64,000 nt of DNA from a phage. Below, piece by piece: positions 16,891 through 55,049 of this stretch. The notes under the pieces were generated by a model. The model was not told the origin of the DNA, did not search any database, and was given only the letters and a program-made list of their open reading frames with translations. Position 1 is the first letter of the stretch. Each line of letters starts with the position of its first letter. The stretch lies in the sequence record PQ536907.1; one strand, 5' to 3'. The translations under genes and the position numbers were made by a program.

Positions 16891-18305
<1,415 letters not shown>

Positions 18306-19737: not shown

Positions 19738-21325
<1,588 letters not shown>

Positions 21326-45180: not shown

Positions 45181-45330
45181 TTACTGCATGACTGTGATAA
45201 CTGTCATGATAACACGTTGAATGCCGAACGCAAGAAGACCTCCTGCTACGGCTGGAACAACACCTACCCCCGCTAGTAAAATGCCGCCAGATACTAATGC
45301 AGCGCTTGTAATACCAATGAATGGACTCAT
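45181..45330 (-). CDS. Small hydrophobic Gly/Ala-rich peptide (49 aa, below the track cutoff)
   Basis: Hand-translated MSPFIGITSAALVSGGILLAGVGVVPAVAGGLLAFGIQRVIMTVITVMQ; its ATG overlaps the gene 52 stop (ATGA). Confidence 0.45.
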   Translation of the reverse strand: MSPFIGITSAALVSGGILLAGVGVVPAVAGGLLAFGIQRVIMTVITVMQ

Positions 45331-46655
45331 TTGATTTCCTCTAAATCTTTAGTGTATTCTGTAACTACATCAGTAGTTTTCCAATATTCGTTTTCTTCTT
45401 TTTTAGCTTTAGCTTCTTCAGCAAGTTTCTTTGCTTCATCAGAAGTCATATGAAAAATATTCATTCCAACTAGTTTATCAACATAAGAAGAATACATCTC
45501 AATTTTAGAAAGTTCTTCGGTCAGTTCTTTACGAGTTTTACCCTGTACAACAATTTCACCTGAAATTACTTTCTTAATGAAATGCGCCTTGGCAAAGGCT
45601 AAACGAAATGCTGATTCAGTTTCTTTGATTTTGTTATCAATTCGTTTTTGGACATAAGTTTTACGAACTTCAACGAAGTCTTTGATTAAATCAACTACGT
45701 TATCGTAAACTTGTAGCTTTCCTTTCTCATTAATAACCGTAATATTCTGAGAACGACGCTCAATCAACCCGAAGTCTTTCATAATTTTTGCATGGCGTTC
45801 TTCTTCATTATCGCTCAAAGAATATTCTTTACGGAATTTAACTTTAAAGCCAAAACCATGCTCACCACAAGCATCATCCCACGTAATGAAGCCTTTATCT
45901 TCAAGTGGGTCTAAGATTTTACTCACATAAGTTTCACGATCATACTTATACGGAATCTCAGTGATATGCATTTGAGTTCGTGAAGTAAACTTGTATGTTC
46001 CACGAATTTCATATTGCCCATCAATCTCAACGACTTCACCACGAAATTCTGGGAATTCTACCTTCGGTTTAGTTACTTTCTTTCCTTGAAGAGCTTGCAG
46101 TACAGCTTTCTTGACAGAAGAAACACTATGAGGAAGAATGTAAGTTGCATAACCAGTTGCAATACCGGAAACACCATTAAGAAGAACAGTAGGAATAATA
46201 GGCAAATAGAAAGCAGGCGGAATGTGTTCTTTATCTTGATGTACTGGAGCATATTCAGTATCTTTATATACGTTATAGAAATTTTTACTTACACGAGCAA
46301 AAATATAACGACTAGCTGCTGCCTTTTGGACAGTACGAGAACCAAAGTTTCCTTGACCATCTAACAAAGGAAAGTTATTATTCCAAGTGTTAGCCATCAA
46401 AGCACCTGCGTCTTGCGCAGAGTTTTCACCATGATGATATCCAAGGTCTGCTACACCGCCTGCAATAGAAGCGAGTTTGTGAAACTTATCTTTATTTCCT
46501 CGTGCCAAATCAAGAGCTCGAGCAATAACAAATCGTTGAACTGGCTTAAATCCATCAATCATATTTGGGATAGCACGATTTTCAACCGTGTACATAGCAT
46601 AAGCCAATGCTTCATTATCAATGATACTTTTTAAATCGCGATTATTCAGTTGCAT
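45327..46655 (-). CDS. 52: DNA topoisomerase II medium subunit gp52
   Basis: 442 aa; type IIA topoisomerase cleavage/religation (GyrA-like) region; synteny motA-52. Confidence 0.93.
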   Translation of the reverse strand: MQLNNRDLKSIIDNEALAYAMYTVENRAIPNMIDGFKPVQRFVIARALDLARGNKDKFHKLASIAGGVADLGYHHGENSAQDAGALMANTWNNNFPLLDGQGNFGSRTVQKAAASRYIFARVSKNFYNVYKDTEYAPVHQDKEHIPPAFYLPIIPTVLLNGVSGIATGYATYILPHSVSSVKKAVLQALQGKKVTKPKVEFPEFRGEVVEIDGQYEIRGTYKFTSRTQMHITEIPYKYDRETYVSKILDPLEDKGFITWDDACGEHGFGFKVKFRKEYSLSDNEEERHAKIMKDFGLIERRSQNITVINEKGKLQVYDNVVDLIKDFVEVRKTYVQKRIDNKIKETESAFRLAFAKAHFIKKVISGEIVVQGKTRKELTEELSKIEMYSSYVDKLVGMNIFHMTSDEAKKLAEEAKAKKEENEYWKTTDVVTEYTKDLEEIK

Positions 46656-46659
46656 AAAT

Positions 46660-46800
46660 TTACCATACTAGTGAATGTAGTGCCATAATAACATCAGAAA
46701 TGAAAAGCACGACTTGAATTAATCCGAACATTACTCCATAATATAGTGCTACCAATAAAGTAGCAAGGGCTAATGAATAGCCCAAGATTTTCTTAATCAT
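46660..46800 (-). CDS. Small membrane peptide (46 aa, below the track cutoff)
   Basis: Hand-translated MIKKILGYSLALATLLVALYYGVMFGLIQVVLFISDVIMALHSLVW; immediately upstream of gene 52. Confidence 0.4.
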   Translation of the reverse strand: MIKKILGYSLALATLLVALYYGVMFGLIQVVLFISDVIMALHSLVW

Positions 46801-46951
46801 TAGTAGATAACAACACAAATGTTAAATATGCACACATACCCTGGGCTAAAGCTTGTGAAAACACACTGCTAGCATCGATACAGATAGTTAAAACACATGC
46901 TACTATCCAACAAATAAATGAAATAACTCCTAATAATTTTGCGATATTCAT
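46793..46951 (-). CDS. Small membrane protein, ac-like (52 aa)
   Basis: Track ORF trimmed to the internal ATG with a GAGGAGAAT ribosome-binding site; hydrophobic; paralogous to the next ORF. Confidence 0.5.
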   Translation of the reverse strand: MNIAKLLGVISFICWIVACVLTICIDASSVFSQALAQGMCAYLTFVLLSTND

Positions 46952-46961
46952 AATATTCTCC

Positions 46962-47117
46962 TCAACTATTTTTAGAACCAATGTACGCGAATAATGATAA
47001 AATCGCTAATACGCCCTGAGCTGATGCTTGCAAAAATACTGAAGTTTCTCCGGTTATTACTGTTCCGATGCATAAAAAGAACCAACAGAAAAAGGCTATA
47101 CCGTGAACAAATTTCAT
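46962..47117 (-). CDS. Small membrane protein, ac-like paralog (51 aa, below the track cutoff)
   Basis: Hand-translated MKFVHGIAFFCWFFLCIGTVITGETSVFLQASAQGVLAILSLF...; GAGGAAAAT ribosome-binding site; shares the FxCW...SVFxQAxAQG pattern with 46793-46951. Confidence 0.45.
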   Translation of the reverse strand: MKFVHGIAFFCWFFLCIGTVITGETSVFLQASAQGVLAILSLFAYIGSKNS

Positions 47118-47124
47118 ATTTTCC

Positions 47125-47205
47125 TCACTGGCGTCCGAAGACGCCTTTGGTTTTAAGATTGTTACGATAGAACTGCATCACATGTTCGTTATGGAAATTA
47201 CTCAT
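47125..47205 (-). CDS. stp: Stp peptide (26 aa; activator of the host PrrC anticodon nuclease)
   Basis: Hand-translated [26 protein letters not shown], which matches T4 Stp as I recall it; start overlaps the ndd stop. Confidence 0.8.
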
Positions 47206-47663
47206 TAATATGCCTGCAAAACAAATTTAAAGTTATCAGCCAACATACGGTTCATTTCTTCAAGTGTTTGATACTCAGAATGATGATTACGAGTAAACGC
47301 TAAAGCTAACTGTCCTTTTCCAAATCCCGTCGTCAAAGGTTTCATCTTAGAAGCAGGCAGATAAAATACTGTGTATGGAACATTGTTATTTGCAATAGTA
47401 CGTGCAAGTTGAGACCGGCGTTGACGAATATGACTTAGAACTGCACTGAATCCTTGCTTAGAACGCTGATTACCTACATAAAATCGTGCAGACACACATG
47501 GATTACTAAATGGACGACCATCTAATTTACACACTAAAAAGTAAAATCCAGGTTTAGATAAAATATCTTTATGCGGAGTTCCCAAAAACCACTCACCACC
47601 CTTGATTGTACCAATAACAGTAGCGCCTGCATTGTTCAGATCAGTAACAGTCATGTATTTCAT
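47205..47663 (-). CDS. ndd: Nucleoid disruption protein Ndd
   Basis: 152 aa from the internal Met ([13 protein letters not shown]...); position upstream of stp as in T4. Confidence 0.8.
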
Positions 47664-49518: not shown

Positions 49519-49581
49519 TTAAACTTTCCTTTATGTCGGAATCATAATTTCTCTTAAAACAAAAGGGCCGAAGCCCTTATT

Positions 49582-53204: not shown

Positions 53205-55022
53205 CTACTGGCTCATCCATTCTTTACGAAGGTCAGCATTATCTCCCATGAGCATTTCAAAAAGCTCTTTCCAGTTCTCAGGAAGTTTAACAACATCATA
53301 TACTGGATTTTGAATCATCTCACGATATTCAGATTTTTCCAAAGAGCCAAGTCCTTTAATATAACGGATGCTATGTTTAGGTAGAGCATCTTTGGCACTC
53401 TCATATTCAGCGACTGTATAAAACCATTCTTGTTTTTTACCGACCTGAGCGATGATTACCGGAGTTTTGACAAAGCGAATTCGTCCTTGCTCAAACAATT
53501 CTGGCCAATTACTAAAAAACCCGAGCAGAGAAGGATAAATGCTTCCTAGACCATCATGGTCAGCATCAGTCATAATAGCAATATTGCGATAATTCAAGTT
53601 TTCAGCCTTTTCACCAAGAACTAGACCAGTGATTGCGCAAATATCAAATAGTTCTTTGTTTTTAAGCATATCAGCATATGACATACCCCAACTGTTGAGA
53701 ACTTTACCACGCAATGGATAACCACCATGAAGTTCTTTATCACGAACATCAATAAGATATCCGATAGCCGAATCACCCTCAGTCAGGAAAAGAGTAGTGT
53801 CAGCATCTTTACCACAAAGATTCGCTTTGATATGTTTATGAACTTTAGCTTTAGAAGCCTTTTTAGCTGCTTTAGTTTCAGCTGCTTTTTCTGCTGCCAA
53901 TTTACGGGCCAAGGCAGCTTCAATAATTGGCATCAAAATAGCTTCATTATTTAGAATAGCGCGTGAAATCTTTTTAGCATCAAGCTGAATATGACTACGA
54001 ATTTCGCCAAATGGAGAAGTCAAACGCTCTTTAGTTTGAGAATCAAATCGCATGTTTTTCATATCACGAACAAACATAACGATAGTCAAACATTCTTTAA
54101 CACGTGCTTTAGTTACATCAATTTTGAACTTACGTTTGATTTGTGGAATAAGGTCTTCACAAATATCATCCATAACACAGTCAATGTGATGGCCACCATT
54201 CTTAGTGTGAATGTTATTCACGTAAGTTAATTGACGAAATCCATCCGGTGAACGACCAACCGCAATAGAACAATTTTCTTGTTCTTGAACAATAGCATGT
54301 TCATCATACTGTCGTGCATATTTCTTAAAATTGCCCTGAACCTTTTTACCATTAAAGGTAAATTGAATATCAGGATAAACAACAGCAAGTGTCTGGAGAC
54401 GATCTAGTGTAATGTCAAGATAAACTTGGGACAGCTCATTAGTTTCAAATGACATAAAATCTGGAATGAAAGTAACACGAGTTCCTTTCCATTTTCCAGG
54501 AATAGTTTCCCAGGATTTATTTTCCATGCCATTTGAACAACGAACTACAATATTATTTTGACCATCGCCAGTTTCACCGACAAACATCACAGAAAAAATG
54601 TTAGTTAAACTAGAACCAACACCATTCATACCACCGGTGACACGTTCTTTATCATCACCAAAGTTACCACCCGCTTTTGGAATAGTCCAAGCAGCAACTG
54701 GACCAGGAATTTCTTCACCGGTAGGTGTTTTAACCATCGCTTGTGGAATACCACGACCGTTATCTTCAACTGTTACTTGATTGTTTTTAATAGTAACATT
54801 AATTTTATTTGCGAATTTAAACTTAGTACGAATACCTTCATCGACTGAGTTATCGATAATTTCATCAATAAGCTTAACAAGACCAGGTACATACTGAACA
54901 CTTTCCCATTTACCAAACAGAAAGCGCTCATGCATTTCATTAGCAGAAGAGCCAATGTACATGCCACTACGCTTTTTGATATGTTCAATATCGCTCAGAA
55001 TTTTAATTTCATTCTTAATCAT
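53205..55022 (-). CDS. 39: DNA topoisomerase II large (ATPase) subunit gp39, uninterrupted
   Basis: 605 aa from the ATG (the track ORF uses a GTG one codon upstream); single ORF spanning what T4 splits into genes 39 and 60. Confidence 0.92.
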   Translation of the reverse strand: MIKNEIKILSDIEHIKKRSGMYIGSSANEMHERFLFGKWESVQYVPGLVKLIDEIIDNSVDEGIRTKFKFANKINVTIKNNQVTVEDNGRGIPQAMVKTPTGEEIPGPVAAWTIPKAGGNFGDDKERVTGGMNGVGSSLTNIFSVMFVGETGDGQNNIVVRCSNGMENKSWETIPGKWKGTRVTFIPDFMSFETNELSQVYLDITLDRLQTLAVVYPDIQFTFNGKKVQGNFKKYARQYDEHAIVQEQENCSIAVGRSPDGFRQLTYVNNIHTKNGGHHIDCVMDDICEDLIPQIKRKFKIDVTKARVKECLTIVMFVRDMKNMRFDSQTKERLTSPFGEIRSHIQLDAKKISRAILNNEAILMPIIEAALARKLAAEKAAETKAAKKASKAKVHKHIKANLCGKDADTTLFLTEGDSAIGYLIDVRDKELHGGYPLRGKVLNSWGMSYADMLKNKELFDICAITGLVLGEKAENLNYRNIAIMTDADHDGLGSIYPSLLGFFSNWPELFEQGRIRFVKTPVIIAQVGKKQEWFYTVAEYESAKDALPKHSIRYIKGLGSLEKSEYREMIQNPVYDVVKLPENWKELFEMLMGDNADLRKEWMSQ

Positions 55023-55049
55023 CACTTATCCTCGTTTGGTTTCGGGAAT

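Follow-up and report, generated by a model that had tools for sequence, protein, structure and literature searches.

A second Ac-family membrane peptide gene between stp and the T4-type ac gene of a Tequatrovirus

The closest described relatives of the small genes reported here are stp (NP_049878; PF08133), ac (NP_049877, T4p266) and 52.1 (NP_049876; DUF7396) of phage T4. The Stp peptide acts directly on EcoprrI, a type Ic restriction enzyme, and also inhibits EcoR124I (PMC3014915). Inhibition by Stp alters the EcoprrI-PrrC complex and so unmasks the tRNA-Lys anticodon nuclease, after which the cut tRNA-Lys is healed by Pnk, the product of pseT, and sealed by Rnl1, the product of rnlA (PMC3014915). 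The N-terminal 18 residues of Stp are nearly invariant, the remainder of the peptide being polymorphic (PMC3014915). Ac, in turn, determines the response of the infection to acridines: wild-type Ac makes infection acridine-sensitive and its loss makes it resistant, such that a T4 delta-ac mutant plates on acriflavine, and expression of T4 ac sensitizes E. coli to acriflavine and ampicillin (bioRxiv 10.1101/2025.06.30.662393). The substitution G38R abolishes Ac function and thereby gives acriflavine resistance, and the Ac of phage PP01, which carries an additional Thr as does one of the two peptides described below, stays acriflavine-sensitive (bioRxiv 10.1101/2025.06.30.662393). On the basis of these phenotypes and of a predicted fold (two helices in an ESMFold model of T4 Ac), Ac has been proposed to block AcrAB-TolC (bioRxiv 10.1101/2025.06.30.662393). 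A 2026 PNAS paper takes this blockade over as an assumption and contains no phenotype data that separate one-copy from two-copy BASEL phages. The preprint surveyed Ac homologues by BLASTN at 93–100% identity and mentions no paralogue (bioRxiv 10.1101/2025.06.30.662393); because homologues were sought in this way, the lineage of the second gene described here was missed. Literature searches on acridine resistance in Tequatrovirus and T4-like phages likewise brought up no second ac gene.

We analyzed a window of 64,000 nucleotides of phage DNA (sequence record PQ536907.1), in which the interval between ndd and gene 52 encodes, on the minus strand and in 5' to 3' order, stp, acB, acA and 52.1 (Table 1). 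The names acA, for the T4-type copy, and acB, for the extra copy, were coined in this analysis. An earlier note on this DNA had described four small open reading frames between ndd and gene 52, and re-translation recovered all of them, on the minus strand and with the coordinates and lengths that it gave; their identification as 52.1, two ac-like paralogues and Stp was upheld by alignments with T4 (NC_000866) and by Pfam and PHROG profiles. The whole string from ndd to gene 52 is tightly packed, with neighbouring stop and start pairs that overlap or lie 4–10 nt apart. The ndd TAA and the stp ATG have one base in common (TAATG), two Shine-Dalgarno sites of the cluster, those of acB and acA, are placed on the stop codon of the preceding gene, and gene 52 begins 4 nt past the 52.1 stop. 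Over positions 46600–47300 (701 bp), the sequence is 100% identical to that of Escherichia phages vB_Eco_Geo and vB_Eco_TB37 and >98% identical to that of around 50 further Tequatrovirus records. No exact MotA box (TGCTTYA) was found on the minus strand close to the cluster, and a scan for sigma-70-type promoters returned 16 sites against 12.4 expected from shuffles, which is no enrichment; the promoter of the cluster was therefore not located. We read the locus, with a probability of about 0.8, as the early/delayed-early ndd-stp-ac-52.1-52 string of a Tequatrovirus, in which acB represents a second Ac-family member and the two-gene state is intermediate between an ancestral acB-like gene and later losses. 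The cluster as such is already known, as it consists of T4 families throughout and its two-ac form, although less common, is annotated in identical public genomes.

Table 1. Features of the ndd-to-gene 52 interval and the tRNA repair genes encoded in the same window
Feature	Position	Strand	Evidence
ndd (nucleoid disruption protein)	47205-47660	-	PF06591 E 1.7e-94; phrog_1102; position and length as T4 ndd
stp, 26 aa	47125-47205	-	PF08133 E 2e-21; phrog_6763; 26/26 residues as T4 Stp
acB, 51 aa, ac-family membrane peptide absent from T4	46962-47117	-	phrog_2501 E 4.9e-26
acA, 52 aa from its ATG, T4 ac orthologue	46793-46951	-	phrog_2501 E 3.7e-25
52.1, 46 aa, hydrophobic, DUF7396	46660-46800	-	PF24129 E 3.5e-23; phrog_3595 E 1.2e-25
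gene 52 (topoisomerase II medium subunit)	45327-46655	-	ORF; position agrees with T4 annotation
pseT (polynucleotide kinase/3'-phosphatase)	17080-17988	-	PF25109 E 3.6e-59 and AAA_33; PNKP phosphatase and kinase domains
rnlA (RNA ligase 1)	19738-20898	-	PF09511 (RNA_lig_T4_1) E 3.1e-25 and PF20819 (T4_Rnl1_C) E 1.3e-39; ORF given from GTG, real start probably an internal ATG

Stp of this phage shows no difference from T4 Stp, is found at the same place, where its start overlaps the ndd stop codon, and scores 75.3 bits with PF08133 (Nuclease_act), for which the cut-off is 25. From this identity with the T4 peptide, type Ic inhibition and PrrC activation can be inferred for it. It would act as a soluble peptide that binds and inhibits type Ic enzymes, with PrrC being unmasked in prr+ hosts; the resulting damage would then be healed by PseT and sealed by RnlA, both of which, as had been claimed, are encoded in the same window according to their domain matches. 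The earlier statement that Stp activates PrrC thus holds for the consequence of its action, but not for its direct target, which is EcoprrI (PMC3014915). Similarly, the description of all four peptides as membrane-type fits 52.1, acA and acB, which are hydrophobic (GRAVY 1.68, 1.42 and 1.15, respectively), but not Stp, which is hydrophilic (GRAVY −1.03). The last codons of stp contain a hairpin, GGCGUC-UUCG-GACGCC with a C(UUCG)G tetraloop (47130–47145, minus strand), located directly 5' of the acB Shine-Dalgarno sequence. A 66-nt segment around it has a folding energy of −17.7 kcal/mol (z −2.8). The hairpin lacks a U-tract on the coding strand, and a terminator-like score was obtained on the plus strand only.

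The downstream ac copy, acA, is T4 Ac with one Thr inserted near the C-terminus (the PP01-type variant) and is otherwise identical to it, and it shares with T4 ac both its position and an 8-nt overlap with 52.1. Its Shine-Dalgarno sequence, GAGGAG (46958–46963, minus strand), lies in the 10-nt spacer behind acB and overlaps the acB TGA stop, and its pairwise dN/dS values range from 0 to 0.53. The product of 52.1 is identical to T4 gp52.1 at 45 of 46 residues, with a single Ala/Thr difference, and matches PF24129 over positions 1–46 of 46 (81.9 bits, cut-off 27). As in T4, the start of 52.1 overlaps the end of ac, its ATG being found inside the last acA codons. Since 52.1 also has no Shine-Dalgarno sequence of its own, it is likely to be translationally coupled to acA.

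T4 has no counterpart of acB, which corresponds to a 166-bp block wholly missing from that genome. Its Shine-Dalgarno sequence, GAGGA (47122–47126, minus strand), overlaps the TGA of stp and stands 4 nt (AAAT) before the ATG, within a stp-acB spacer of 7 nt. The acB frame is free of stops and frameshifts in all the carriers inspected, the full-length peptide is encoded at ≥95% identity in 48 phage records, and pairwise dN/dS values within the acB lineage (eight homologues) range from 0.09 to 0.54, all below 1. Between this phage and T4_ev151, both of which carry acB in the tandem context, dN/dS is 0.49, a value that derives from only 11 changes (7 nonsynonymous, 4 synonymous) and is compatible with some relaxation of selection. 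On these grounds acB is, as far as its sequence can tell, a real gene. It also belongs to the same family as acA. Alignment with phrog_2501 covers residues 1–50 of this 50-position model for acB and is full-length for acA as well, and the E-values of these full-length matches (Table 1) put the kinship of the two peptides far beyond chance. They are 41% identical, and both contain F-x-C-W and SVFxQAxAQG exactly as the earlier note had pointed out. The columns invariant in both copies and their homologues include C, W, T, S, V, F, Q, Q and G. The genomic position of acB is that of the Ac family, with ndd/stp on one side, 52.1 on the other and gene 52 downstream. A local Pfam scan gave no family match for either ac copy; the precomputed family PF26944 lists acA-type and some acB-type proteins, with the closest relatives of this acB missing.

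An AlphaFold2 model of acB, based on a 12-sequence family alignment, predicts a two-helix hairpin with a TGET loop in between (mean pLDDT 77), which agrees with the hydrophobic two-helix hairpin of about 50 residues expected of the Ac family. The predicted helices span residues ~3–22 and 27–50 in native numbering, the model having been built without Met1 (model helices 2–21 and 26–49, to which 1 is added). A Foldseek search of this model against the PDB retrieved only PsbZ (E 9.4), a match that tells little about so generic a fold as a two-helix hairpin, and AcrZ was absent from the results. AcrZ of E. coli is a 49-aa membrane protein consisting of a single helix that binds AcrB and modulates the substrate range of the pump. 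As a functional analogy only, Ac is likewise a small hydrophobic inner-membrane peptide of ~50 aa for which the same pump, AcrAB-TolC, has been proposed as the target. The two differ, however: AcrZ modulates the pump with its one helix, and Ac, for which a hairpin of two helices is predicted, is proposed to block it.

We read the haplotypes of the locus from multi-way DNA alignments, which distinguish four states. In the first, found in this phage, T4_ev151, KNP5 and others, both ac genes are present; further two-copy phages are the BASEL phage FriedrichZschokke (MZ501067), ECML-134 and pSs-1. In the second, that of T4 and KIT06, the acB block is precisely missing, and GAGGAAAATATGAA contains the point at which the spacer next to stp meets acA; recombination between the two spacers, which resemble each other, could account for this state. 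In the third, that of T2, T6 and YUEEL01, acA is the only ac gene, yet ~16 nt from the end of acB remain, as does the spacer between acB and acA. The remnant, GGTT(T/C)TAAAAATAGTTGAGGAGAATA(C/T)TATG, is fused in frame after Stp codon 18 and results in a Stp of 27–28 aa (28 in T6), and the UUCG hairpin at the end of stp is deleted. Stp of the T2/T6 type therefore departs from T4 Stp past residue 18 as a consequence of the acB deletion, and this deletion junction provides a structural explanation for the C-terminal polymorphism of Stp. As its first 18 residues are intact, Stp of this type would be expected to retain EcoprrI/EcoR124I inhibition and PrrC activation. The fourth state is a single acB-type gene that overlaps 52.1. 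It is present in RB51, RB33, AREG1, RPN226 and REP4 and, beyond these, in Gaprivervirus UPEC01, Mosigvirus OLB35, Jiaodavirus KP179 and the unclassified Roth20. The single ac proteins of the RB51/RB33 type and of other genera (YP_002854217, AIT74898, QQG30928, AYR04177, AYD80890) belong to the same lineage as acB, which is 76% identical to RB51 Ac, 71% to RB33 Ac and 72% (36/50) to UPEC01 Ac, the TGETSV loop being common to all. In the single-ac phages the gene, their only ac copy, overlaps 52.1; in this phage, by contrast, acB terminates at a TGA of its own after ...IGSKNS, and acA comes next.

All seven outgroup Ac proteins (from four phages and three uncultivated contigs) are nearer to acB than to acA by both identity and BLOSUM score; for example, UPEC01 Ac shares only 22 of 50 positions with acA. 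Their loops are of the TGE(T/S)SV type, as in acB, whereas the acA loop reads IDASSV. T4-type Ac, used as the query, matched 463 records, of which 460 reach ≥80% identity; the hosts are of the Tequatrovirus type throughout, and no acA-type Ac came up outside Tequatrovirus. BLASTP searches of Ndd-anchored IMG/VR loci with the small peptides were too insensitive beyond Tequatrovirus, and a hand-iterated HMM found homologues in five more of these loci and none in the remainder. The order and overlaps of the small genes are conserved across genera. This distribution suggests that acB probably represents the older lineage and the canonical ac gene of T4 the derived copy. The two genes are, by the divergence of their sequences, old paralogues, and the tandem duplication that had been claimed for them stands in a deep evolutionary sense but not as a recent event, given the 41% identity.

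We propose that the locus originally contained a single acB-like gene, which overlapped 52.1, and that a unit of ~166 bp, reaching from the stp end and its Shine-Dalgarno sequence to ...AAAAAT in the penultimate codons, was tandem-duplicated within Tequatrovirus. The downstream copy, still overlapping 52.1, would have become acA by divergence, and the upstream copy, which would have gained its own TGA through an extra T, would be acB. The junction expected from such an event is AAAAAT joined to AGTGAGGAAAATATG, compared with the observed AAAAATAGTTGAGGAGAATATTATG. An alignment of the stp-acB spacer with the acB-acA spacer scored 23; shuffles averaged 6.8 (sd 4.9), and 5 of 2000 of them reached 23. 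The similarity is, however, dominated by the Shine-Dalgarno sequence and start codon and could be convergent. For this reason we regard tandem duplication in situ as likely and not as proven. The absence of acB from the T4 line and from the T2/T6 line looks like two independent losses, the latter line descending from a two-gene ancestor to judge from the acB tail and acB-acA spacer that it still carries. The single gene of RB51 is ambiguous: its 3' end matches the tandem-type acB up to AAAAAT and then runs on into 52.1, and it may be either the pre-duplication progenitor or the product of an acA deletion.

Other accounts of the locus were weighed against this reading. The two-gene arrangement might instead go back to an illegitimate or modular recombination event that brought together a phage of the T4 type, with acA only, and one of the RB51 type, with acB only, in which case the two ac genes would be highly diverged alleles. 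The mosaic nature of T-even genomes, the occurrence of both single-gene haplotypes in the same hosts and the near identity of the 3' end of acB in this phage to that of RB51 up to AAAAAT would all suit such an origin. However, the end of RB51-type ac and the start of T4-type ac share only the Shine-Dalgarno sequence and spacer, the acA-only phages T2, T6 and YUEEL01 retain parts of acB and the acB-acA spacer, implying ancestors with both genes, and the confinement of acA to Tequatrovirus in our searches fits an origin within the genus; we therefore consider recombination between diverged alleles very unlikely. Even less can be said for the view that the small reading frames are chance open frames in AT-rich DNA, to which we give virtually no credence. 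It is true that they comprise only 26–52 codons in a genome of 36% GC and that overlapping antisense or out-of-frame reading frames of 33–58 codons exist in the same place, but the frames of the cluster give full-length matches to curated families (E 1e-21 to 1e-26), their order and overlaps recur in other genera, dN/dS values lie below 1, and T4 stp and ac are backed by genetic and biochemical evidence. The family matches and dN/dS values refute this explanation for acB and its neighbours, and the antisense and out-of-frame frames (for example 46994–47170, plus strand, and 46972–47085, minus strand) are not conserved as proteins.

A different question is whether acB in the two-copy phages is a decaying, redundant leftover, with a cluster that is functionally equal to that of T4. 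At least two independent losses (T4 type and T2/T6 type) would be in line with decay, as would the retention of both copies in only ~9% of matching records and the dN/dS of 0.49 against T4_ev151, which exceeds that of several single-copy acB genes (down to 0.09–0.25). The repeated loss does show that acB is dispensable in many backgrounds. Against decay stand the frame free of stops and frameshifts, the 48 records that are ≥95% identical over the full length, the strong Shine-Dalgarno sequence that has been kept, the pairwise dN/dS values, every one of which is <1, and the intact family-invariant residues W, T, SVF, Q and QG. On balance, decay of acB appears unlikely, though far from negligible, and we favour its retention as a second Ac-family gene.

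As for function, acA and acB are both predicted to form two-helix inner-membrane hairpins, with an invariant Trp in helix 1, a Thr ahead of the loop and a helix 2 that opens with SVFxQAxAQG. Both peptides would insert into the host inner membrane and may thereby raise the level of acridine-type compounds inside the cell. The Gly of the AQG motif, equivalent to G38 of T4 Ac, is invariant in both paralogues and kept in most outgroups, which makes it most likely that acB shares the basic activity of acA and is either redundant with it or tuned to another host target. It is quite unlikely, in our estimate, that the paralogues have diverged functionally, for example by forming a heterodimer or by acting on different host efflux or membrane targets. 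A deletion test for acriflavine sensitivity, as suggested in the earlier note, has the expected direction inverted, because deletion of ac gives resistance (bioRxiv 10.1101/2025.06.30.662393).

Turning to the abundance of the two-copy arrangement in public records, we found that 51 of 566 matching phage records (~9%) cover ≥80% of the whole locus with both ac copies, and that a 91-nt probe over the acB-to-acA junction is also covered to ≥80% in 51 records; these counts include GenBank/RefSeq duplicates. Proteins of the acB type are found at ≥60% identity in 95 records and at lower identity in Klebsiella, Raoultella and 170-kb Escherichia phages. Several matching Tequatrovirus records annotate 'acridine resistance (x2)' together with a small membrane or hypothetical protein, Ndd and topoisomerase, and a few of them name stp as well. 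Among the 40 two-copy records listed, around three name all four small genes and at least nine annotate one or none. The warning that automated annotation easily misses these genes is borne out by the small share of records that name all four. The two-copy state as such is neither new nor overlooked for this genome: both ac copies are annotated as acridine resistance in identical records.

As a discovery the locus is minor, since it is made up of described T4 families and its two-ac arrangement is annotated in identical public genomes. Its interest lies in the use of ac as a selectable marker and in the treatment of acriflavine sensitivity as a single-gene trait of T4-like phages. If the two copies are redundant, resistance may need two hits in the ~9% of sampled Tequatrovirus records that carry both. 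Moreover, the single ac gene of RB51-type phages encodes a different protein from T4 Ac, and the acB lineage appears to be ancestral and more widespread, which bears on mechanistic models such as the blockade of AcrAB-TolC. Were the paralogues to have diverged in function, the polymorphism among T-even phages in copy number and in which copy is kept would be an adaptive switch that adjusts how infected cells cope with chemical antiphage defence in the shape of intercalating or otherwise toxic small molecules, and the textbook ac gene of T4 would be a derived specialist and not the ancestral gene. The locus offers a compact example of gene duplication, divergence and independent loss.

Within the Stp peptides of phage relatives, the changed C-terminus of phages T6, T2 and YUEEL01 (NFGILGFKNS in T6) arises from an in-frame fusion with the tail of the deleted acB, the second ac-family gene. 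Among public protein sets there are gene calls (P0006, P0009) that run stp directly into ac, giving products of 81 aa that carry PF08133 and PF26944 together, and a frameshift-type variant seems, in some relatives, to join the stp and ac ORFs across the spacer that lies between them. The stop codon found in ac of the T2 record AP018813 means that, judging from its sequence, the T2 stock behind this record would be ac-defective.

The window carries two C(UUCG)G-tetraloop hairpins. The one at the end of stp resembles an intrinsic terminator on the opposite (+) strand only, and it has been deleted in phages of the T2/T6 type. A 6-bp hairpin adjoins the overlap of acA and 52.1, where it could affect coupled translation.

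Features located in the window and in loci of relatives (L numbers)
Feature	Source	Coordinates	Details
C(UUCG)G-tetraloop hairpin 1	Window	47130-47145	Within final codons of stp; z -2.8
C(UUCG)G-tetraloop hairpin 2	Window	49563-49578	Terminator-like score, both strands
6-bp hairpin	Window	46767-46783	GGGCTA-TTCAT-TAGCCC (coding strand); just within 52.1 5' end
606-aa single ORF	Window	53205-55025 (-)	HATPase_c, DNA_gyraseB and TOPRIM_C domains
Altered Stp	L042 (T6), L043 (T2), L044 (YUEEL01)	382-468	27-28 aa; C-terminus changed
ac stop codon	L043 (T2, AP018813)	about 509-511	TCA to TAA, codon 11
Small hydrophobic ORF cassettes	L001	1596-1769	
	L047	247-420	
	L048	241-414	
	L052	555-710	
	L053	537-710	
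	L049	410-571	

The topoisomerase large subunit of T4 is encoded by two genes, 39 and 60, with a 50-nt translational bypass, whereas the window carries one ORF, which looks like an unsplit version of this subunit.

Further small hydrophobic ORF cassettes, absent from the window, occur between ndd and gene 52 in relatives. One of them, a 57-aa ORF, separates ndd from stp/ac in 101117BS1, AREG1, UPEC01 and Roth20; KP179 has the same ORF, but there annotation from an internal start yields 51 aa. Another, 53 aa long, is found in REP4, where it sits between stp and ac. This stretch from ndd to gene 52 behaves as a hotspot for the gain and loss of small membrane peptides.
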